From the NCBI GenBank assembly GCA_905178155.1, contig CAJINV010000025.1:164453-228452 (forward strand): a stretch of DNA of 64,000 bases, written 5' to 3'. This DNA comes from Amoebophrya sp. A120 (taxonomy: Eukaryota > Protista > Dinoflagellata). This document shows positions 12,802 to 47,997 of this stretch, piece by piece (the first letter of the stretch is position 1; each line of letters opens with the position of its first letter). The translations under genes were made by a program, and so were the position numbers. The notes under the pieces are model-generated. The model did not search any database. It was not told the origin of the DNA and saw only the letters and a program-made list of their open reading frames with translations.

Positions 12802-15800
12802 ATGAAGCAACCCGTAGACGCGGATTTCTACGACCCCGAGCAAATGGGAACCAGCAAGCGCCTATGCTTTGCAAACATGTCTGGGTCTCGAAGATTGATG
12901 CAAGATTTCTTCTTCTTGTCACGCTTGCCTCGCATGATTAAGTAAGATTATTCATTGCATAAAATTATAAAACACACGCTTCCACGACGCTACAGCCGTT
13001 CACCTATAGGCCCCCGATGCCCTATCGATAGGGCAACTTCGTATCGGAGGCATCAGCATGCAGGTCGGGCAAAGATGAAATTGAAAAAGTTGCGAGGGCT
13101 TCAGCAAAAAACTTGCGCGGAAGGAAATTTCTCTTCGCCGCGTGCTACGCTGAATAAATTTTGCCTATAGATAGGCCTCTGAGAGCCTATAGTGTATAGG
13201 TTGGCTGGGTTCGTTCACCATGCCATGCAGGATTCGATATTTTTCTCAAAGCTTGACTTTGAAAAAAAAAAATGCAATGAGTTCATGCAAAACGCAATCA
13301 CAGTGGTATAGCCGTTCACCTATAGGCCTCCGAGGGCCTATAGATAGGGCAATCTTGTATCGAAGGCATCAGCATGCAGGTCGGGCAAAGATGAAATTGA
13401 AAAAGTTTCGAGGGCCTCAGCAAAAAACTTGCGCGGAAGGCAAATTTTCTTCGCCGCGTGCTACGCTGAATAAATTTTGCCTATAGATAGGCCTCTGAGA
13501 GCCTATAGGTTGGCTGGGTTCGTTCACCATGCCATGCAGGATTCGATATTTTTCCCAAAGCTTGAGTTGGAAAGAAAAAAGTGCAATGAGTTCATACAAA
13601 ACGCAATCACGGTGGTATAGCCGTTCACCTATAGGCCTCCGAGGGCCTATAGATAGGGCAACTTCGTATCGGAGGCATCAGCCTGCAGGTCGGGCAAAGA
13701 AGAAATTGAAAAAGTTGCGGGGGCTTCAGCAAAAAACTTGCGCGGAAGGCAATTTTTCTTCCCCGCGTGCTACGCTGAATAAATTTTGCCTATAGATAGG
13801 CCTCTGAGAGCCTATAGGTTGGCTGGGTTTGTTCTCCATGCCATGCAGGATTCGATATTTTTCTCAAAGCTTGACTTGGAAAGAAAAAAACGCAGTGAGT
13901 TCATGCAAAACGCAATCACGGTGGTATAGCCGTTCACCTATAGGCCTCCGAGGACCTATAGATAGGGTCACGCGGAGTCGGGCGCGTCAAGATTTAGGTC
14001 GGGCGTAGACAAATGTGAAAAAGTGACGCACTCCACAAAAAAAAGCGCGCATGTAGGGCATTCTTTTTTCGGCGCATGTTGTGCTGGATATTTTTTGCCT
14101 ATAGAGATACCCTTGAGACCCTATAGGCTGGCTCGGTATGGTCTCCTGACCGTGCAGAAAGTGAAAGCAGTAGGAAAATAAAAAATTTTTGGAAGCAAAA
14201 ACCGTATATGCGTGTGCACGATGAAAAGGTCCTTTTTATGTTTGTCATGCAGTAACGCAGTCTGTCATGCAAAATGCGCAAGCAGAAGTAGCTACGCAAA
14301 TGCTTCTCATGCTTGGGTGTGCGTTACACAGGTTCCATCTCGCTTATTCACCACGACCAATCTTCGACCACGGCTAGTACTCCGGATCGCAATCGATGGA
14401 GGGCGGGACCTGCACCGGCGACAGGCGCTACCCAACCAACCAACCAATCAAATATACAAACTTCTAGACCCAGATGGAGATTTGAAATGCATAGCGGCAA
14501 GCGGAGCCCCCACCCGACCTGGGGTTCGTCAAGTACGTGCTGAATTTATGAACTGCAAAAGTATCGTACTCGTATAAATGCATTACAAATTTGCTAAATA
14601 AAATTTGTAATGCGGGTTTGCCTCAAGAAAAAGATTTGTAATGCAAGACTTGCATTCATACGAATACGATACTTTTGCACAGGATAGAATTTTTTCGTTC
14701 CGCCATTGCTTGTCTTCCTCATCATCGCGCTGCTGTGTAACGTATCAACTGCAAATATGATGTCTGGCGTTGGAAAGATCTAAGGTCTGCCATGCTTGGC
14801 TAACATGACACGCAAGTCTGTCATGCGTGTTACCCAAAAAGAAAAACTACCCCACTTTCCTGTCATGCAGAAGCTCGCTTTGTCATGCAAAATAAACAAC
14901 ACTGTAAGCACCGCCAAAACTTGTCATGTTGGGCATTCAATTGAAGAGTCCGCGTCTTTCTCAAGCAGCATCATAAGTTTCCAGACCCAGACACTTCTGC
15001 TTTTGATATAAGGAGTCCAGGTACATCAAGCCTGCGGGCACAATTACGGTGGTGTCGGTGATTGTGGGCGTCTTCGGCGCTGTCGTGTTGTACCTCTTCT
15101 TCGTCGCCAGAAAGCACTATATCCAACGAAAAAAGTGTTACAGTTACACATTTGTAGTGAATTCAGCAACACAAATTTCTCTGCATGAGAGAGAGAGAAC
15201 TTGTAATGCGGAAATCCTACGGCTACCGGAAAACATTTATGAAACGAGGCTCCTATGCATACTTATCCGGCATGACAGAGCTTGTCTGTCCTGCTTGGCC
15301 TGCAAGACAGTGTGTAACTGTATACACTTTTTTCTTGCGATACACTACGCCACGGTCATCGTCCTGTTCGCCGCACTGTTTTACGGCTGCTTTGTCGGGG
15401 AGGGCATGTAATATTATTGGAAGAAATTATGGATCGAGTTGATGTTTCTGTTTGTGGTTCTCCATGTCACTTTGATTTTTCATGCTTGTACTAAGAAGAA
15501 GAAAACTGGTTCCGAGGATAGAATACTGAATTGCTTGAAAAAAAAATCCAACCACCAGATTCAAACACGAGTTGCGGCCACTGTATGCGTATCCGATACA
15601 AAATGATTTAGGGTAATCTGGACCATCAACATCTGGGGATCGAATGTGACTTGTTTTATCAACTCGAACACTGTGATGTAGTTTCTCTTTCTGTTCTCGA
15701 GCACCAGCTGCAGACCGCATGCTCTGAGGTCAGTAGACCCTGGTACATTTTACTTCCCGTAGTTGCATACTCCGATGCGGGCGATGCGCGAGCGCACGGG

Positions 15801-18991: not shown

Positions 18992-21900
18992 ATGGATCGA
19001 TACAGCAACAACGGTAGTGCTACTAGTAGAGCTGGTCGGGCGTACGCGCCCCGAGACATTCATCTCCGAGAAGATTACCAGCAGAACATGATGAACACCA
19101 GTGATGCAACAACATCTTCAAATCCCGCGCGAACCGGTGGGGGACCACAACATCGTGATGATTTTGGTTCATCTGACCAAAACTACAACACGGCAAGACG
19201 TGGCAATGGTGGAGCTGGCCCTCCTGCAAGTTCGTCCAGCAGCCGCGGCGGCAGAAACACTAATGGGAACAATATGAACCCACAGACACGGTCTAGTACT
19301 TCCTTTTTCAGTCGCGAACAACCCCGGGCCTTCGACCCGCCATTGCGGTTAGGTCCGGAATATGACCCACCGGTCTTGCCCGGTCCGGATAATTACACTT
19401 CTTCATCGCATCGCCGAGCCTTATTGACTGGGCAGCACCGCGACCCCGATTTGTCGCACGGCTTTGCGGGGGTCGAGACCTTTTCCCACCGCCGAAGCCC
19501 CCGCCGCGATCTGGATCTCTACGAAGAGCTGGCGCACCGGCAGTTTCGGGGGGGCACCATGGACAACGCGGGGGGGAAGGGACGCCGGGGCGGGGGAGCG
19601 GCCGGGGGTAGTGGATGGAACGGCGGTCGTGGGGCATATGAGAGTGCACAACTCCCCCTCCCCCTCATTTGTGTTCTTGCATGAGCAGCAACACAAGCGC
19701 TGGCAAAGATGCAGCTTTTGCATGTCAAATTCCTAGAGGATTGTCGTGCTGCTTAGGATCTCGGAATCTGTCATGCAAGCAGTGCTAACAGGCAAAGTGT
19801 GGATTTGGAAATTTGCATCACAAATGAGGGCGAGGGGGGGTTGTGCACTTTCATACGGCAACTGGTACTTCTATTAGTAGGCCTACCGCGGAGGCGGTCG
19901 AAATAAAGCATCGTAGATCTCCTCGTCCTCCTGCTGTCCCGCCGTCTGCGCAGGATGAACAAATGAGTAGTGCCAAAAGTCGCGGTCTTCTCCCCGAAGA
20001 ACATGTTCTTGACGAGGAGCCACTTCCCGCTGCCGTGACGGACGCAGCTCTGGTCTTAACGGAGTACCTGGCGAGCAGGGCCAGGTCGTCCCCACGCGAG
20101 GATATTGCCGGCCGCAAGAGTGAACGAAGTCTACGATCCTCGCCAAGAAATGATGGACAAGCAGACGATAGTACTACCAGGGGCGTTCGTGAAGATTTTT
20201 ACCACGGTCCTCGCCACAGGGATAATGAAGATGAACAAGTAGCTGATCGCAACAACTTCTACAGTCGGTCTCCGCACGACAATCCTGATGGCAGTCGACC
20301 TGCCTCGCAGCGCGAGGTTGTGCGTGACGCTTGTCTTGAGCTCATCGCCCGGAAAATTGCACTAGATTTGGAACTATGGATTGCAAAAGCATCGCACTCT
20401 AGTAGTAATTCTTGCAATACAAACTTCTAGCGCAGCATCTTCATGATGATTGAACAAGAGCGGTGGAATCATCTGTGATGCCGATCTAGCTTGGAAAAAA
20501 CATTTGTCATGCATCATATCATTGCGACTACTACGAGTGCGATACGGTACTTTTGCACTGCATAAGCCCGGGAGGACTTCGTTCCAGCCTCTTCCGCAAA
20601 TAACAGAAGCCTGCGACCGTCCCCACGCGATCATGTTAGTGATCACGACGTTCTTGGACCACCACGGGCTTCGCGGTCAGGAAGAAATGAAGACGGGTAC
20701 TATTATAAAAAGCGTACACGAGGAGGACGTGGCGGGGGTGGGCGACGTAGCAAGTCTCCTACTTCCACCGCACTGGTCGAGGATCAGAATATTAACAATT
20801 CTTCCCGTGGAGGTCCAAATGCAGGTCGCCCTTCCCCCCGTGCTGGGGCCGATAAGGAACTGCACCCGCTTCGTCCTGGAGCTGGAGCTGGGAGTAGTAG
20901 CTCATCCTCTTCTTCTTCGTCTTTCCAGCGTCAGCAGTTGCGACACGAGTTTTTACAACAGCCAAGATCTTCGCCCCGTGATGATGAACTAGAAAGGCGT
21001 CGCGCTGCCTATGACCTGCTCAGAGGCTGTTCCAATCTCAAAAAATTTGTATTGCAGAAAGCGGAGCGGTTTGTGTGTCTCGTCTCATGCAGATCATGCA
21101 AGAAGTAGAAGACAAAAACAAAATGCAGACTTTATTGCAACGTTTGAGATTGTTCTAACACCTGAGAAACTTATACTGTCGAGCTTGATGACTTCTTGAA
21201 CGCACACGATGAATACAGCCTCTATCCCACGAAAAAACTGTTTCACTGTGATGCTTTTGCAAGATCTGCATCACAAGTTTGTTACACATGAGGACACAGA
21301 AAATCTGCCATGCGCGCTTCCCAAAGGAGAGTGCTTCTAAAAGTCCAATGTCTTGCGGGTGTAGCAAGACAAATACTCCTGCGTTCCATTCTATGCATCA
21401 CAAGTTCACAGTGAAACAGTTTTTTCTTGTGACAGCCTCCAACCGGTCTCCAATCCTCCGCCGTTCCCAGAAATAAACCGGAAAAACCGGCTATCCTGTG
21501 CAAAAGTATCGTACTCGTATTGCAATCATGCATTACAAATCTTTCTCTTGAGGTAAATCCGCATTACAAATTTCCTCTCTCATGCTGAGGAAATTTGTAA
21601 TGCATTTATACGAGTACGATACTTTTGCAGTTCATACCGGCTATCAAAATGAAGAATCCCTGCACCCCATACTCAAACTGGAAATTTGTGATGCTGATTT
21701 GTGACCGCGAGTCGTGTTGTCATGCTAATAGATGTAGACGCTGTAGGTCTGGCTGGCGTGGGAAAGCCTTGCATGTTCAGCATGACAGGAGGCAGCTGGA
21801 AGTGGGAAACAGCATGACAAATTGCTTACAAACAACGCCGCAACTGCGTCTCTTGCTCTTGTAGCAATACAAACGGCACGCGTTTCTTTGTGTACGGCGC

Positions 21901-24900
21901 AGATCCAGCATTACAAATTAGATAGCGAATGATGAAAAATTTGCGAGCCAATAAAAAAAATCCAGCATTACAAATTTCCTGTCCGATAATCCGGGGAGGT
22001 GGGATTCATTTTTCCTTTCAATACCGGCCCCCACCGCCCCCACCACCGGGAACAGGGATGAAAGGCTACAAAAGTCGCCCGAGCTACATCGGTTCTCTCG
22101 CTCTGGAAAACGATAAAGCTCCTGTGGGTAGCACAACCACGACGGCGAAAGGTGGATACAAAGGCAGCGCTACTTCATCTACTTCCCGGGCTGCACCAGC
22201 TGGTACCCACCTCAGCCCCTTGGCGGAAGACGTTTCTACCAGCGGACCTCCACGCGGTAAAGGCTACAAATCCCGACCGTCCTACATCGGATCTGCGGCC
22301 CTTCTTGCTAGCGTCGAGGGTAGTGGTAGCAGCTGGAATATCAAATGTAAAAGTGTCTGGGTCTGGAAACTTGTGATGCTGGGTGGCGTCTCATGATGAC
22401 GCCACAAGTGCTGGCTCAGCATGACAAGTTTCTGAGCTTCTAGGTGTTGCCTATTCTGCATGACAAACTGCGCTTCTGCATCACCGAAAAATAGGGCTCT
22501 TGGGTAACATGCATGACAGACTAAGGGGTCATGCTGGCAGAGCATGACAGACCGTCCATTCTTCCAGACCCAGGCATTTTTACATTTGATATGGAACACC
22601 CCAGCCAGAGGCTCGCCGCGGGATGATAACTTAGTGAATGACCCGCCCTCGTCGTCGTCGTACACGACTGGCCGCTATTCCCCGACGAACAATAATATTA
22701 AAGGGGCGAACAACAGAAGCACGAAAGGTTCATCTGCTCGCACGAGTGCCACGACCTACAACACCGCTGCCAGATCTCCGGGAGGAGCAGCCTATAAAGA
22801 TTTCGATGCAGTAGATAAAAACTCTTCTTCTTCGAGAACTATGCAGTCCTCGTCCAAGGACAGCCACTACTCGTCGGCGCCTTCGTCCTCCCCAGGCGGG
22901 CATCAAACAAGCCACGATAATTTGTACAGCCATTTCAATAGGGAAAAAACCAGCAAAATGACGAGTTCATTGGAAGACGTACACCACGAAAGAAGCAGCT
23001 TCAACACCACGTCGACACCTTCAGCGCAAAACAGTCGGAGCAACACAAAGGAGAGTGGGCTCTTTCATGTGCCGGTATGGATTGCAAAAATGTCTGGGTC
23101 TGGAAGAGTGTAAGCTTGTCATGGAGGTTTTCGATGACCCATGAGGTCTGGAATGCGGGACCTAGCATGACAGAGTCTGTGAGGTCTCTGCCATGCTATC
23201 CTGCATGAGAAACTGCCCTCCAACTTGGTCGAAAGTCGACAGCTTTTGGCATTCATGCAGCACAGATTTTTGCATTATTCGGATTTAGCATGACGAGTTG
23301 TAATCTTCCAGACCCAGACTCAGACATTTTTGCACTCCATAGCCGGCCGGGCGGAACGACTACGACAGCAAGAGGAGCGGCCGCGGCAACGACGAGCAGG
23401 AAAAATACAACCGCAACTCCGCCTACCAGCATGAGGATTCAAGAATTTATTTATCCGCATCCCCCGCCTCCAAGAACGTGTACCAAAAAACCAGCAGCAA
23501 GGAGAGCAATTCGTCGAGCAGTGCTTTTGGTAAAAAATCTCTCGTCCATCCGCACAGCGCCAGCGGAGGTTTAATTCCACGTGCAGCACGAGGGCCTAGT
23601 GAGATGAAGAACTCAAGGCATGATGTTCATCGCGCGACCACGTCGTCGAGTAGTAAAAACAAAAATAACCGGGCAACTTCCAGGGACAGTGTATTGCAGG
23701 CACTGAACCTGCAGCCGGCCTCCAAAGGGTTCGATGCGGATAATATCGTGAGGAAAAATCCCCCCTTTCCATACCGCAAAGGGATACTTCTGAAAATTTG
23801 CGATGCTGATTTGTGGCCACAAATCGTCTCGGTATTGCAAGAAGGCCAAGCCAGAGACTCCGCCGCATTATGCAGGCGGTTTCTGATGCTATGGGGCCTA
23901 CAGAGTTGTACACATTTTCCATGCTACGCGCCTACGTCAAAACCCTTCTACTTAGGCCCAGGCATGGACCTGCAGTCCTCTACTGCAATACAGACCTGAT
24001 TCGTGTAAGTACCCGAATCCAGCATCAGCAACTTCCTTTTGATATGGGGAAGGGGGGTTTTTCCTTGTGATAGGTAATTTCTGGAGTCCGACGCTGGACG
24101 GGATGACGTTACAAAATCATCCACGACCTCTATCCTGTGCAAAAGTATCGTATTCGTAGTAATCGCAAACATGCATTACAAATCTTGCTCTTAAGGTAAA
24201 CCTGCATTACAAATTTTATTTCTCATGCTGAGGAAATTTGTGATGCAATAGCAATTCATACTAGTACGATGCTTTTGCAGTTCATAACCTCCACCTCTAG
24301 CTGATATCAACAGAGACATGAATAAAGCTCCAAAGACCTCCTCCTCCTCTGACTTTGTGGACGAGCAGCTGCAGATAGATCATGCACAGCCGACGGACAC
24401 AAAAATGAAAATCGTCCACGGGGACCACCACGAGGAGCAGGCTCCGGGTCAACAAGAAGAGGGAGATGCCTACACCTCCGACGGGGACCACACGGGTTCC
24501 TCGTCAGAAGAAAGCGAAGAAATTTTCGACGCGAAAGAGGCACGATATCCTGTTTAAAAACGCCCTACCCCGCCGTCAAGATGGAAATTCTGCAACACAA
24601 ATCCAGACGTTTTGGGAGTCACGCATGACAGGTTGCACTGTGTAGGGCAGTGCAGGTTAGTAGGGACAGCCGCATTACAAATCCATCTAATCATCCTACT
24701 CACAGCATCACAAATTCCAAAACACGACTGAAAATGCTTGTCATGAAGATGCGCATCAAAAATATTCCTGCCATTGCAAATCTGCATGACGACTCTGGAC
24801 TGGGGACGTTTTTCCACAGGATACACGGAGGAAACACGAGGCCTGGTTTGACGAGTGCATGAAAAGGTTTGCGGTGAAAACCGTGCTCCCGCATATCAGC

Positions 24901-37145: not shown

Positions 37146-40100
37146 ATGGGAGGCTGTCAGGGAAAGCAAGCTGGAACTTCTACCGGCTTCGCCTCTACCA
37201 GTGGAGTATCAAATGCAAATATGTCTGGGTCTGGAAGAATGCAAGTTTGTCATGCTTGTCTGGCATGGCTCTGAAATCTGTAATGCACGTTACCCAAGAG
37301 CCCCATTTTTCTGTCATGGAGAAACGCAGTTTGTCATGCAGAATAGGCAAAACCTAGAAGCTCAGAAACTTCAACTTGTCATGCTGGGCCGGCACTTGCG
37401 GCCTTCTCATGATGCGCTACCCAGCATCACAAATTTCCAGACCTAGACATATTTGCAGTTGATATGGAGCTGCTGCATCAGGTTCTTTGCCGAGCGGAGG
37501 GGGGCCGTTGGAAACGATCGTCGAAACGACAGCGGAGTTTGCCATGCAGAGCGCGCAAGAACAACCCCCAGGAGCACCAGACCGGGCGTCTCCATTTTCG
37601 TCGGATCTCCATCAGGACCGGAGCAGCGGAGCAGGTGGTATAAGGTTTTGAAGTTGATGTAGTTGCCATGCGAATATTAAATAAAACTCGAATATAGATC
37701 TGAGCTTGTCATGGGTGGTCATATGGAAGATGCGAAGGGGGAAAATGAAAAAAGTATATAAATCAAATTATATTTCAGATCTCCAGAGGTTGACCTCCGA
37801 GGCCAGTAAAAACGGTTCGCCTGCACCAGATCATGGAATGATGAACATGCGGCAAGAACCCTGCGATTATCATCAGGCAGATCCCAAGTTTCTCGACGAG
37901 TATGACGAGTACCAGTTCCGCCGCGAGCAGTATTACAATGAAAAATGCCCCCACCCCCGAACTTGAAAGCATTTGTATTGCAAATCTTTCCAAATGAAAC
38001 ATTAGCCCTCTTGCGTGTATCAGCATCATAGATTTCCGATCGTGAATAGCAAAAAATTGTATTGCAAAAGATCCCAGCAAGAGCGGTGCTTGTCATGCAA
38101 GCGATGCGAAACACGACTAGAATCTGCATCAGAAAGATTTTTACTCCTTTCATGCATGACAAAAAGCTTTCATTTGGAAACTTCGCATCACAAATTGTTG
38201 CAATTTCAGGGGTGGGGGGCATTTTTCACTGTGATAAGCAGGCTATGATGGCCGTGAAGCACAACTTGACGGACCGCTTTCTGCAAGACGAAGAGCAGCA
38301 AACTGTTTTCAACAATAGCATCAGCACGGATGACGTTGTGCTCCGCGGTGGAGCTGCCAATGTTTACTCTAGTACAGCTGGCTCAATACAACCGTCGTGC
38401 AGCTACCTGCAGCAGGGGGAATACAACCCGAAGAACCAAAATGATCAAGGTCTTACACAAGAACTACATCAGGGATCGGCAAAGACACTGTATGGGGAGC
38501 TTTTGCACAGCAGCTACAGCTACCCGAGTCCGACGGAAACTAGTGCGACAAGCGGAATCATGGTGGGTGCTGGAGGCGTATGAGAGTGCACAACCCCCCC
38601 TCCCCCTCCTTTGTGTTGCATGAACAGCAACACAAGCGCTAGCAAAGATGCAGCTTTTGCATGACAAATTCCTAGCCGGTTGTAGTGCTGTTTTGGCTTT
38701 TGGCATCTGTCATGCAAAGAGTGCTAACAGGCAGATTCTGCCTGTTAGAATGCAAATCTACCTTCTGCCGCAGAAGGTAGATTTGGGATTTTGCATGACA
38801 AATGAGGGGGAGGGGGAGTTGTGCACTGTCATAAGGCGGAAATAATAATTATAACGAGTACTACACGACGAACAGCAACAGCGCTGCAATCTACACGGGG
38901 ACGACAACTAGTCCGTATGACGGCCCAGAGGACAACTACACCGATGAACAACACGAGAATTACTTATCAAATGTAAAAGTGTCTGGGTCTGGAAGAATGC
39001 GCGATTTGTCATGCAGCTTTTCCATGACCCATGAGATCTGGAATGCAGGACCTAGCATGACAGATTCTGTGCGATCTCTCTCATGCCTATCCTGCATTAG
39101 AAACTCCCTCCCGACTTGGTCAAAACTGGACGACGTTGGCAATCTGCCTAGTCGCCCCTAGGTAGGTGCAGGAAAAGGAATTTTCTGTGTGGGCTTTTTG
39201 TGCTTAATTATTCCAACAGGGGCTGCGTCTTTTTTTTCTGCCTTGCCAGCAGAGGTGTATAGAAGATGGGGGGGCATTGACGGAAGTGGTGCGAGACCTT
39301 GGAGACGGAGCAGGCGACAAGAGCGGAAATGCTACAAATCAAAAAAAAAGCTCGCATACACGCGCACTGTTTAACTGTGTGAAAGGTGTCGGCCCTGATT
39401 GACCTGCTGCGGCAGGCAGGTGAATTCGTAGAAGTGCTTCACATGTTAAGTAACGCCCACCGGCCTCCTAGATTAGTGATGAATTTATATGCGAAAAACA
39501 GAAGAGAGGGGCCCAATCAAAAAAAAAAAATCATGCAACACAGATTTTTGCATGTTTCAGATTTAGCATGAGAAGTTGCATCGTTCCAGACCCAGACATT
39601 TTTACATTTGATATTACTTAAACCACAGCAAAAATAAACCCTACACCAGCAAAACGAGTAGCTACTTCTACAACAACGACCCCCGAGATGAAAGCAACAC
39701 CTGCAAGATGAACTACAGTGTAGCTACCAACAACGCGGATCGACATGGTGAAGCCCCCGCGGCGGGGGCAAAAATCGCATTAGCAGAAGACAATTCTTAT
39801 GCATTGCAAAAGCATCGTACTCGTATTGCAATCATGCATTACAAATCCCTTTGCTAAGGAAAATCCGCATTACAAATTTTTTTTTCTGAGGCTGAGGAAA
39901 TTTGTAATGCATTTATACGAGTACGATACTTTTGCAGTTCATGATTCTCGCTCAGCGGTGGAGGCCGAGAAGAAATGCTCTGTGACCAACGCTATGCAGT
40001 GCAGATACGTCTGGGTCTGGAAGGATGCAACTTGTCATGCTAATTCTGGATACTGCAAAAATCTGTGTTGCATGATTGCCAAAAGCTGCTCACTTTTGAC

Positions 40101-42042
40101 CAAGCTGAGAGGGGGTTTCTCATGCAGCCGAGGCATGATAGAGGTCGGACAGAATCTGTCATGCTGGGTCATGTATGACAGACCTCACGCGTCATGGAAA
40201 ACCCGCATGACAAGTCTGCCAACTTTCCAGACCCAGATGACATGTTTGCATTTGATAAACGCTTTGCTCGCATTGCTTGAAGAGGAAGATGAGCAATACC
40301 AGGTGCAGCATGCCCAGACGGAACGCGAACGGCGGAAAATAAGCGAGTCCTCGGGCATGAAAAGCCAGTATGTGCAAGCGCGACCATTTGAGAACGGCGG
40401 GGTCGTGCGGAGAGGTACAATGAAATTACTAAATGAAAATTTTGAAAAATTGATAAATGCTGGCGAGTGATGAAGATATTCACATGCGCGATAACCCGGC
40501 TCATCGAATGAACACATGCACGCTTATAGCATCACACTCCTGACTGTTCTTCACATGCGTTGTATAATGTCGAAACCAGCAGGTCCCTACATCGATAATA
40601 TCAATATGGACGACACAGTGGACAGCTACCTGGACAATTCTCCAGCAGTATGAGAGTGCACAACTTCCCCTCCCCCACATCTGTCATGCAAAATGCATTG
40701 CGTCAGCACAGCACTTCCGTTGCTGCAGAAGATGCCATTTCAATGAGGGGGAGGGGGAGTTGTGCACTCTGATAAGCAGATGCCACCATCGATGAAAGCT
40801 TCGTTGCCCCGGACAACAGCGCTGCGTATCCTATGTAAAAACGTCCCCACCCCCTAGTTCGTAGCCACATAGCATATGCTTTCTCTTCCCGTCGTAGTTC
40901 GTTCTCCTCTTGTTTCCTTTTGTGAAAATTTGAAAATTCTCTGTGCTTTAAGTTGGTCTTTTCCAGTACATAAACACCCCCTAGTTGTATATGCAAATCT
41001 GCATGCTCAGAATGTGTGTCATGCGGAGCAGCCCCATGAGAAGCATTTTCTTGTTGTGTTTTGGAATTTGTCATGCTCCAATCAGCATAATATGTAGTGA
41101 GGTCACCGAACGGTTCTAACCGGGGAGTTTTTTTGACATATACCCTGAAAAACGACCGGCAGTTTTCAAGCGGCCGGAAGCGTTTTTTGACATAAAAGAT
41201 TTTCAATTATCAAGCGGACGGGGCTTTGCCGTCAAACAAGCCCGGTCGAAAACTATCGACTCGCACTTGATAAAACGACGCAGGGGAGCTGGCAAAAGGG
41301 GCGCCCTTCTGAGGCGCCCACCGCCTTAGTTTCTGGCGATTTGGGGCGTCCAAAAAGGGGCGCGCAAAAAACGCGCCCAAAATCAGAACAGCGAAACAGC
41401 ATGGCACGGCCGCGATTTCGGAGCATTTTGGGCGGCCGCGAAAGCGGCCGCCTTTTCGCCGGTTTCAGAGCCTGGGAAGCTTTGCAAAAAGCGCCGGCGT
41501 GAAAAATAAAAACGCGAAAAAGAAAAAGCGGCCCGCACGCGCAAAGCCAATCCGCATGCTACGGGCCCGATTTTTCTTCGCTTTTTGGGCGCCCCCCGCG
41601 GCACCTGGATCGGCCCCTTAGCATGGGGGCTGGCTTTCGGAAAGGGATTTCAGGAATTTGCCAAAATTTGCGACGTTTCCCAAGTGGCCGCCATACCGTG
41701 CGGCATAACGTTCCTCACGGTGGTATGGCGAGCCCATAAAAAGCAAAGCCGCAGCCAAGGCGGCGGTCGGCAAAAAAACGCCCACGACCTCACTACCCCC
41801 GCCCCGGCGGCTATATTTGGTAGGCTTGGCCTGTAATGCTTATGCACGAGCTAAAGAGTAGAGGATTACACTACGAGGCCAAACTTTTCATTCGCATTAC
41901 AACCAAAGCTTGTGGATTTGTCTAGCAAAATTTCCATTTTCTTAGCGCTATAGGGCTATGGGCTGGGGACGTTTTTTCTCAGGACACTGCGAGAGGGTTA
42001 TTCAACTGTGGCGCGTGCCTGTTGAAGCGCATAGGGGAGTGA
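37146..42042 (+). CDS. Low-complexity hypothetical protein with an N-terminal MGGCQGK (myristoylation/palmitoylation-like) motif
   Basis: Frame kept across 8 introners and a GT-AG intron at about 37634-37779. Junction 40466-40583 less certain. Stop TGA at 42040-42042. Confidence 0.6.
37207..37464. mobile_element. Introner, family A
   Basis: Family TIRs; DR tggag/tggag. Confidence 0.92.
37931..38236. mobile_element. Introner, family F
   Basis: Family TIRs; DR agcag/agcag; homologous to 669-979. Confidence 0.92.
38579..38833. mobile_element. Introner, family B
   Basis: Family TIRs; DR aggcg/aggcg. Confidence 0.92.
38965..39613. mobile_element. Introner, family A, with nested poly(A) element
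   Basis: Family TIRs 649 bp apart; DR ttact/ttact. Confidence 0.92.
39145..39530 (+). mobile_element. Poly(A)-tailed SINE/LINE-3'-end-like element nested in introner 38965-39613
   Basis: Interrupts family-A internal sequence and ends GGGCCCAATC-A12. Its 3' ~230 bp are homologous to 47639-47869. Confidence 0.75.
39798..39943. mobile_element. Introner, family C
   Basis: Family TIRs (3' end ATG); DR attct/attct. Confidence 0.9.
39993..40257. mobile_element. Introner, family A
   Basis: Family TIRs; DR aacgc/aacgc. Confidence 0.92.
40649..40774. mobile_element. Introner, family B, internally deleted (126 bp)
   Basis: Family TIRs; DR agcag/agcag. Confidence 0.9.
40827..41986. mobile_element. 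Giant introner, family D, with nested Helentron-like element
   Basis: Family TIRs 1160 bp apart; DR ctgcg/ctgcg. Confidence 0.88.
41091..41822 (+). mobile_element. Non-autonomous Helentron/Helitron2-like element, copy 2, nested in introner 40827-41986
   Basis: Same termini and a similar first ~270 bp as 29115-29923. Splits family-D internal sequence. Confidence 0.7.
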
Positions 42043-45800: not shown

Positions 45801-47997
45801 TTGTAGTCCTGCTAAGGTTCAAGAATTGGGGTGGTGACTAGCATGACAGATGCGAGCTTTTTTGCCCTGAACAGCACGACAAACTGGCTTCCGATACCGG
45901 CAAAATTTGTCATGCGCCGCCTAGAAACTGTGGGTCCAACTGGTATGGATTTTCTACATTACAAGTTGAAGTTTTTCAGCTTTGTCGATTTCGATCCTGA
46001 CGCTCCCATAGAGAGGAGGCGAAAAGACTAGCGGAAGACGAGGACGACAGTTACCTGGAAAGCAACTGGGCGGTATTGTTCGGAAAAATCTCCCCTCCCC
46101 GTATCGAAAAGGAAATTTGTGATGCTGGATTTGCGTACACAGATCGCCTTGCATTGCTAAAAGGCCAAGAACAAACGCAGTCGTGACCTGAATTGCAGGC
46201 GATTTGTCATGCTGTTTCCCACTTCGAGTCGCCTCGTGTCATGCGGAAGATGAAAGGCTTTCCCACGCCTGCCAGAACTACAGTCCGCATCATCTCCTGC
46301 CTTCCAGCATGACAACATGAGTTGCGGTAGCAAATCATGCTACACAAATCTTTTTTCCGTAGCCATTTTGGCTCAAGTTTTTTTTTCCGCGAAGGGAAGA
46401 AGTACTTGCAGTACAGATTCGCTGCACTCGTCCGGGGAGCGACGTGTGCTGCGGTTTCGATCTCTATCCTTGCCCTCGGTCGCCTCCCTTCGCCCCCCGA
46501 AGGAGAGGTTCACTTGGTAGAAATCTAACCCTGATGCCTTACACCTCCCGCCGCTAGGATGGACGATTTAGTCCTCGTCTACGATAAAGACACCCCCGAG
46601 GCGGGGCAGTTCGCGCTGAACCTGTACGACCACGCGAAAAAATGGATCGGGTTTTCGGTGCAGGAGCCGAAGCCGACCGAGCGCACCTCGTTCACGGTGA
46701 ACGGCGCCAGCATGGGGATCATCATCACCAAAGACGTGTTCAAGTCGGAGTTCGTCACGGACGCGCTGGAGCTGATGGTGGCGGCCAAGAAGCCCTGCCT
46801 GCTGATCCACCACATCGCGGGCAAGACCAACGTGGAGGACGAGATCATGCAGTGCGAGAACGACGACTACCTGCGGTACATCCGCAAGGCGCAGACCTGC
46901 ATCTACACCTTTGACCTGGCGGACCAGTGCCAGGACCACATGATCACGCTGCTGGAGTTCAAGTCCGCGGACAGCAAGAAGGAGCTCCAGAAGCAGGCCG
47001 TCCTCCGGCTCGAGGAGACCCGGGCGGACGTGCTCTTGTTTTCCTCGCGCGTCGCCAAGGGCCGGCTGAACGCCGCGGTGCACAGGAGGTACGACTTCTG
47101 CCTCACCTGCGCGGTGGAGGACCCCCCGGTGGCCGAGGACGTGCTGAATAAGGTCTACGACATCATGAGCCGGTACGCGCCGGCGCTGCAGGTCGCGCGC
47201 AACCAGGGCGACAAGGCGGTCACCAACGTGCAGCAGCGCACCGCGAACATCCGCGACTCCTTCAACCTGGTCGTCTTCGCCACGAGGAATTGCTTCGCCA
47301 CCGACGAGAACGGGAAGGGCAGCGCGGTGGTCGAGGAGGTGAAGGCCGCGCTGGAATCCGAGCTGCAGGTGTGCATCATCCAGCACCTGTCCCAGTGTCC
47401 GGACATCGACGCGGAGATCGAGATATCGAATGCAAAAATGTGTGGGTCTGGAAGAGCCAAACTTGTGATGCTGCATTTGGATGCTAAAAAGACCTGTATT
47501 GCATGACAAGCAAGAGGATTCAAATTTGGCTACGCGGAGAGGGCATTTGTCATGCTGGAAGCGCATAGATAAGCGCTCAGAAAATCTGTGATGCTGTGGC
47601 ATACATCACAGACAGCATGGATCATGGAGAATTTGCATGGTGACGAAGCAGACGACAAGCGCGGGAATGGTACAAATCAAAAAAAAAAATGGCATAAACG
47701 TGCTCTGCTTAACTGTGTGAAAGGTGTCGGCCCTGTGTAACCTGCTGCGGCAGGCAGGTGAATTCGTAGAACTGCATCACATGTTAGGCAACATCCACCG
47801 GCCTCCTAGCTCAGTGATGAATTTATATGCGTAAACAGAGCGGGGCCCAATGAAAAAAAAAAAAAAAAACATGCTACACAAATCTCCGTTTCAGTATGGG
47901 GAGGGGGGAGTTTTCATTTTGATTGGCGGACAGCAAGGCTTTGAAGAAGCACCTGGTTGGCGGCGGGCGGCCGATCGGGTTCCGGGGGCTGAACTAG
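42862..47997 (+). CDS. CFAP298: Cilia- and flagella-associated protein 298 (C21orf59/Kurly/FBB18), 286 aa, 14 exons
   Basis: Exons 42862-42925, 43157-43212, 43477-43500, 43677-43731, 44000-44066, 44216-44366, 44554-44604, 44724-44767, 44918-44979, 45153-45190, 45351-45395, 45615-45692, 46016-46073, 47930-47997 total 861 nt. They read MVILHVKKG...RLKVLRL...KHGPLRPE...RGAVMIAYP...WFAGKEL...LSDYVGKNEKTKI...GAPVREP...DDSYLESNWADSKALKKH, matching CFAP298 family motifs. Confidence 0.93.
42926..43151. mobile_element. Introner, family B
   Basis: Family TIRs; DR cacct/cacct. Confidence 0.92.
43213..43471. mobile_element. Introner, family A
   Basis: Family TIRs; DR ggctg/ggctg. Confidence 0.92.
43501..43671. 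mobile_element. Introner, family C variant
   Basis: TIR TGCAAAA.TTCT..CGTACTAATTTC; DR tctct/cgtct. Confidence 0.85.
43732..43994. mobile_element. Introner, family A
   Basis: Family TIRs; DR actga/actga. Confidence 0.92.
44367..44548. mobile_element. Introner, family J (degenerate)
   Basis: AGCGATATCATG/CATGATGTCGCT inverted pair; DR decayed; element+5 removal gives conserved MRGAVMI. Confidence 0.78.
44605..44718. mobile_element. Short introner (114 bp)
   Basis: TATGGA...TCCATA ends; DR tcgat/tcatc; removal gives FDPVRLE. Confidence 0.78.
44980..45147. mobile_element. Introner, family C
   Basis: Family TIRs; DR ggaac/ggaac. Confidence 0.92.
45191..45345. mobile_element. Introner, family C variant
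   Basis: DR gcaag/gccgg; removal gives YVGKNEKTK. Confidence 0.85.
45396..45609. mobile_element. Introner, family A (degenerate)
   Basis: Family TIRs; DR ctgcg/cttcg. Confidence 0.87.
45693..46010. mobile_element. Introner, family K
   Basis: TIR TATGGG.G.GTCAG.ATCGAAATCGACAAAG; DR aagag/gagag. Confidence 0.9.
46356..46377 (+). other. Dinoflagellate spliced leader (DinoSL) relic
   Basis: TCCGTAGCCATTTTGGCTCAAG is an exact 22-nt match to DCCGTAGCCATTTTGGCTCAAG. It is followed by a UTR and CDS rather than the GT-starting SL-RNA intron. Confidence 0.95.
46559..47423 (+). pseudogene. 3'-truncated retrocopy CDS encoding two tandem TIR-like (Toll/IL-1R) domains, nested in the last CFAP298 intron
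   Basis: Intron-free 865-nt GC3-rich ORF downstream of a spliced leader. Second repeat YDFCLTC...IRDSFNLVVFATRNCF...VVEEVKAALESELQVCIIQH resembles TIR_2. Runs into a half introner at 47424. Confidence 0.65.

Follow-up and report, generated by a model that had tools for sequence, protein, structure and literature searches.

How are two introns removed from a message when no exon lies between them? The question is raised by positions 21487 to 22028 of a 64,000-nt stretch of the Amoebophrya sp. A120 genome (contig CAJINV010000025.1, forward strand, positions 164,453 to 228,452; hereafter the window), where two introners, one of family C and one of family E, stand side by side among three copies of the pentamer CCGGC. 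The route by which tens of thousands of non-GT-AG introns are removed in Amoebophrya is an open question according to the available portion of PMC7789003, and this array provides a natural means of testing how introns that lack normal splice signals are excised. The reading favoured here, held to be somewhat on the probable side, is that two introners resembling miniature inverted-repeat transposable elements (MITEs) lie on one 5-base target duplication, each being cut out separately as a hairpin-defined intron with a zero-length exon between them. As far as the end product goes, the array is real and supported, and it is a rare by-product of dense introner insertion.

Direct reading places the CCGGC copies at 21487-21491, 21637-21641 and 22024-22028, and a scan for repeat-flanked inverted ends finds elements with terminal inverted repeats (TIRs), of 145 nt and 382 nt, between them. 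Both elements open with TAT and close with ATA. The ends of element C are complementary at 21 of 25 positions, with a perfect 22-nt arm pair, and those of element E at 15 of 25 in an ungapped comparison. The layout CCGGC-C-CCGGC-E-CCGGC claimed in an earlier note on this DNA is thus borne out, with its coordinates. The parts of the locus are given below; X1-X4 are four runs of one sample, taken to be RNA by a guess (label 'RNA?').

21435..21486, + strand: upstream exon, between a D-type element and C; the piece 21435-21485 belongs to one long contig in each of X1-X4
21487..21491, + strand: first CCGGC, likely the retained copy (at least its first 4 bases), from the sequence, with the register deduced from neighbours with mismatched repeats
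21492..21636, strand not applicable: element C, 145 nt, TAT...ATA, TIRs intact, likely the later insertion (92-93% identity to the nearest copies in the window)
21637..21641, + strand: middle CCGGC, shared, adding net 0 bases to the product (sequence, RNA-like contigs and frame models)
21642..22023, strand not applicable: element E, 382 nt, TAT...ATA, TIRs decayed, likely the older insertion (81% identity to the nearest copy)
22024..22028, + strand: third CCGGC, from the sequence
22029..22338, + strand: downstream exon, reaching to the next (B-type) element and encoding low-complexity protein (contigs, frame, no Pfam match)

Five exons of the host protein returned no Pfam family. Its downstream exon carries a 12-residue motif twice, at 22061-22096 and 22259-22294.

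In the DNA-like run X5, the pieces listed run through the body of E and its right junction; no piece among the X5 matches listed bridges the junction of C and E, which therefore rests on the assembly. An artefact would account for this if an allele with C and another with E at that same CCGGC had been merged in the assembly or in the population. None of the contig pieces listed bridges C-CCGGC-E, and the RNA product would be identical from either allele. However, such a merge should require words spanning the end of C, CCGGC and the start of E, which would be present in neither allele, and among the X5 matches listed no other letters occur between 21575 and 21785. Furthermore, X5 holds a join from another locus in which 5 letters separate a C-type right end from a B-type left end (row 21630 to 22339, among 12 of 107 rows listed), so a form of this kind seems to be present in the reads; with its outer repeats outside the view, this join is probably a second shared-repeat array in the same genome. 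A merger of alleles is accordingly regarded as improbable.

The product left after removal is read from X1-X4, whose contigs were compared with 21435-22200 at 98% likeness. In all four runs one long contig joins 21485 to 22023, a skip of 537 nt with 6 letters of ambiguity, at contig depths of 12.9, 13.1, 9.5 and 6. The joined product retains a single CCGGC, which is the junction that had been predicted from the sequence, and no differing joint is listed in any of the four runs. The X1 contig is without neighbouring elements too, as seen in direct joints at 22333/22592 and 23070/23342 and by length arithmetic for the others, and X5 contigs pass through elements at a depth of ~41. Fifteen reads were placed in total from a raw-read RNA run (X8), none of them at the locus. 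Frame models (n = 6) contain no stops only if both elements are removed and one CCGGC is left; retaining C keeps the frame with 1 stop, and retaining E brings 5. Products with two or three repeats, or with either element kept, are ruled out by these stops.

Inserts that end in TA and bear TIRs recall the internal eliminated sequences of ciliates, and the assignment of X1-X4 to RNA is a guess, so that X1-X4 might instead be DNA of a processed stage from which the elements have been removed. Against this, X5 contigs traverse elements at single-copy depth (19900-21248), X1-X4 hold just 0.34-0.50 of the words of the window, and the introner class was defined from RNA-seq junctions, as far as the available text of PMC7789003 goes. 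Removal at the DNA level is judged very improbable.

The 537-nt skip has GT-AG borders in none of its seven equivalent registers (0/7), and U1 is reported as undetected in Amoebophrya A25 or A120 (PMC7789003, in the portion available). The argument that two stems 5 nt apart are hard to remove under normal exon definition is weak on both counts. The position of the cut is better approached through neighbours whose two repeat copies differ. At the 20375 element (GGAAC/AGCCC), contig pieces from two different runs end at upstream base 4 and start at downstream base 5, and the upstream copy supplies base 4 at 21010 and base 2 at 23744. Because contig pieces keep bases of the upstream repeat at these three neighbours, the cut likely falls after repeat base 4 or 5. 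Applied to both the C and the E unit, this rule makes the units abut exactly, leaving an exon of 0 bases between them. Elements whose repeats are mismatched at up to 3 of 5 positions (20375-20564, 23744-24072 and others) are still skipped, so repeat identity seems unnecessary for removal. The 24546, 32251 and 49914 elements are mismatched at repeat position 5 alone, with A in the upstream copy in all three; this mismatch is silent in the open frame and so cannot fix the exact cut.

The two elements differ in age. In a comparison of 17 C-type and 7 E-type copies from the window (the same families are ~70-95% identical in related loci), C is one of the youngest of its type, at 92-93% to its nearest neighbours and with both ends matching other copies exactly. 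Element E has decayed, at 81% to its nearest copy, and its ends differ from the nearest family end at 4 (inner) and 9 (outer) of 28 positions, compared with 1-6 mismatches for other E ends. With C young and E decayed, C likely landed in the upstream duplication of E, and the simplest history to be read from the letters is likely E first and then C into the upstream CCGGC. The earlier suggestion that the second element inserted into the target-site duplication of the first therefore stands as the simplest origin, probably in this orientation.

On the proposed mechanism, insertion of E would have given CCGGC-E-CCGGC, and a younger copy of C would then have taken the upstream CCGGC as its 5-nt target. 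Each element is predicted to fold into its own long stem, and each unit (an element plus 5 nt) would be removed with a cut after repeat base 4 or 5, as in its neighbours. The C and E units would abut without overlap, and excision in either order would restore an ordinary single introner. In the predicted fold (z-score -8.1) the ends of C pair with P 1.00 and those of E with P 0.998, while the outer ends, C-left and E-right, pair with P 1e-5. The corresponding end-duplex energies are -38.2, -21.2 and -8.5 kcal/mol, the outer pair being no stronger than random cross-family pairs, whose mean is -12.0 (n 4406). Elements that lie close together nearby are removed separately, and the short exons between them are kept: contigs include the 51 nt that separate D from C, and a further 38 letters probably represent exon 21180-21217, which they fit by length. 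In 2 of 13 related loci tested, the open frame needs net exons of 23 and 25 nt. Decay in E, moreover, is no further advanced at the inner end (4 mismatches) than at the outer (9). The two separate predicted hairpins, together with the short neighbouring exons that are kept, favour two independent cuts in either order.

An identical product would result if the whole array were released at once, as a composite intron of 537 nt, with adjacent hairpins bringing the outer ends near each other, the outer TAT-N7-AAAA ends being used and the middle repeat ignored; a zero-length exon would then be tolerated since skipping it costs nothing. The claim that removal needs sequential or recursive excision is thus unproven, given that no intermediate is seen in the shallow contigs. 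Composite ('zombie') splicing is known for tandem organellar introns, according to the part of PMC8393795 available, and several features of the locus weigh on this side and against separate cuts. The full skip is the only joint seen in RNA-like contigs, and a joint missing C alone or E alone was found in 0/4 runs, in contigs so shallow (depth 6-13) that rare forms are dropped and the absence of one-element intermediates cannot be shown. The composite unit does not differ from either single element in its boundary letters, and its outer ends share TAT-N7-AAA, an end motif common to the families. Short gaps between elements are depleted: gaps of 6-28 nt are absent (0/75 in the window, where 30/75 measure 29-90 nt, and 0/18 among unselected gaps in related loci), a pattern consistent with the skipping of such short exons. 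The stem of E is the 4th weakest of 74, and the first 12 nt of E are unpaired in the predicted minimum-energy fold. Micro-exon frame tests were uninformative at 11 of the 13 loci, and because C is young, its intact inner ends say little.

Release in one step meets difficulties of its own. Pairing of the outer ends is not predicted, and arrays with gaps of 12-25 nt occur in related loci. The element at 21010-21175 has no AAAA motif and a weak stem (-20.1), yet it is missing from the X1 contig by length arithmetic, which indicates pairing rather than the motif, albeit in a single case (n = 1). One-step removal is considered a serious rival, though on the doubtful side, and separate excision remains the preferred reading. 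A stronger form of the latter, put forward tentatively and as falling a little short of probable, is that each intron is defined solely by its TIR hairpin together with a 5-nt ruler, without exon or GT-AG recognition, so that serial excision across a 0-base exon would be a ratchet built by transposition. If this were true, the machinery concerned could be assayed directly with shared-repeat arrays, in a lineage from which U1 is reported to be absent. The locus separates the two models: were introns defined by hairpins, one-element intermediates must exist, and were end motifs or proximity decisive, only the 537-nt piece would be released.

The array elements are members of a large population. 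A hand-curated set of 76 elements was used, from which unpaired ends (12863, 28662, 32100, 35128 and 47424) and a doubtful candidate (250-577) were excluded. Perfect 5-nt direct repeats flank 51 of the 76, and in a 5-nt register the copies match at each position in 65-71 of 74 clear-ended elements, compared with 10-24 in registers of 4 or 6 nt. TAT-N7-AAA fits 103 of 146 element ends, including both ends of C and the right end of E; the left end of E has AAG at 11-13, a single change. A subterminal motif, GCAT[TGC]ACA[AG], has 186 matches in 18,553 nt inside elements and 32 in 45,447 nt outside, making it ~14-fold denser inside, and it is present in C and E. To say that the outer ends share little beyond TAT/ATA is therefore an overstatement. 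On these sequence features the lettered families resemble branches within a single superfamily, from which a common 5-nt stagger is to be expected, and the whole window shows it without the array at 21487-22028. It is true that different families make the same 5-bp stagger, as had been proposed from this locus, but the property is a window-wide rule (65-71/74), likely of one superfamily, and is not special to the array. A target-sequence hot spot is unsupported, with at most 0.05 bits at the five duplicated positions.

The described introners of A120 have ends of TAT, 7 nt and an A-run, TIRs, border repeats of 3-5 nt, non-GT-AG borders, removal at the RNA level and many families (Farhat et al. 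2021, PMC7789003, in the portion available), and a supplement legend there shows 5-bp repeats. Both array elements have TAT-N7-A-run ends, TIRs predicted to be capable of forming a hairpin (the stem of E being weak), a direct repeat, genomic repetition and RNA-like removal at non-GT-AG ends; by all sequence and RNA-like features examined, they are Amoebophrya A120-type introners. They differ from those described in the same source, which are single (the word 'nested' occurs 0 times in its main and supplement text), in that one repeat serves two elements and no exon separates them.

On a uniform-insertion null (76 elements, 42,723 host bases), 0.13 shared-repeat arrays are expected per window, so that one array in a window is unremarkable on that null. 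The actual spacing, however, departs from uniformity. Of the 75 gaps in the window, one measures 5 nt and none 6-28 nt (3.0 expected, P 0.045), and the 30 gaps of 29-90 nt compare with 7.5 expected and a maximum of 17 among 20,000 simulated sets. The related loci show the same tendency: of 18 unselected gaps there, 12 measure 39-83 nt, and none is shorter. Nucleosome linkers or a minimum exon size could explain the clustering at 29-90 nt and the avoidance of 6-28 nt.

A metagenome scan for a B-type end with another end within 30 nt returned 28 loci. Members of these families were present in 21 of them, at 20 distinct junctions, and the other 7 were set aside as matches by chance. By inspection, arrays with gaps of 12, 13, 16, 18, 21, 22, 25, 28, 28, 28, 29, 29 and 30 nt were recognised, together with less sure ones at probable gaps of 6 and 17, a probable overlap at gap 3 and doubtful gaps of 6 and 24. 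None of the scan loci is a confirmed gap-5 array, with L009 a candidate; a gap-5 match in L028 proved false, as the TAT concerned is part of exon-like sequence and the real element lies 75 nt further on. The window itself contains a gap-29 array that conforms to the scan pattern yet was not matched, so the scan set is partial or from another strain and gives no absolute rate. Across the window and the scan loci there is no support for an enrichment of shared-repeat (gap-5) arrays, gap 5 being rare like other short gaps. In L019 (361-626), the 5-nt target of a young B element appears to take in the initial TA of an older B-like element (gap 3), and if the locus were coding, the order of removal would matter. 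In L011 (gap 17) the 5-nt repeat of the first element recurs after the second, and in L016 a gap of 6 would leave a 1-nt exon.

Compound introns are known from other systems, each compared here through the available portions of the sources cited. Side-by-side group I twintrons (Ophiostoma cob I4, with a 6-nt pseudoexon, and Hypomyces cox3; PMC7902536, PMC8393795) resemble the array in that their modules meet at a short duplicate of the exon border, and the question of a ratchet or removal in one piece is common to both. Two complete intron modules abut here with no net exon, as in a side-by-side twintron, but those twintrons are self-splicing organellar ribozymes, whereas the present elements are nuclear and MITE-like, with a target duplication as the middle copy. 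Zero-length exons also occur in recursive splicing (Drosophila, rat alpha-tropomyosin and human; PMC5126111), where an internal site likewise contributes nothing to the mRNA. Recursive splicing needs juxtaposed AG/GT sites in long introns, whereas the array has no AG/GT, its units are short and either order is workable; canonical recursive splicing was rejected for lack of AG/GT. Fungal stwintrons (PMC8469720) and nested or merged Micromonas introners (PMC3879977) are, like the array, compound inserts from a mobile intron landing in or at another. In a stwintron the inner intron splits a signal of the outer and so dictates the order of removal (PMC8469720); here neither C nor E is interrupted, and since both are whole and side by side, a stwintron or nested twintron is ruled out. 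A literature search of titles and abstract openings, mostly of openly accessible papers, found no description of abutting introners on a shared duplication. The array shows that insertion into another element's duplication is survivable within an expressed reading frame, and in annotation based on RNA junctions each such array would be recorded as a single chimeric intron whose ends do not match.

Elsewhere in the window, 46074-47924 has E-type ends and a perfect GGCGG repeat enclosing 1,851 nt, including a GC-rich ORF of 315 codons (46559-47506, no Pfam match) and the B-type left end at 47424 without its own right end, possibly a captured or nested gene. At 12863-13960, a partnerless B-type left end precedes a tandem array whose period is ~309-316 nt. 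Oversized elements with internal cargo occur at 38965-39613, 40827-41986 and 47600-47870; the interior of the first resembles 47600-47870 by eye and is 90% identical to part of L001.

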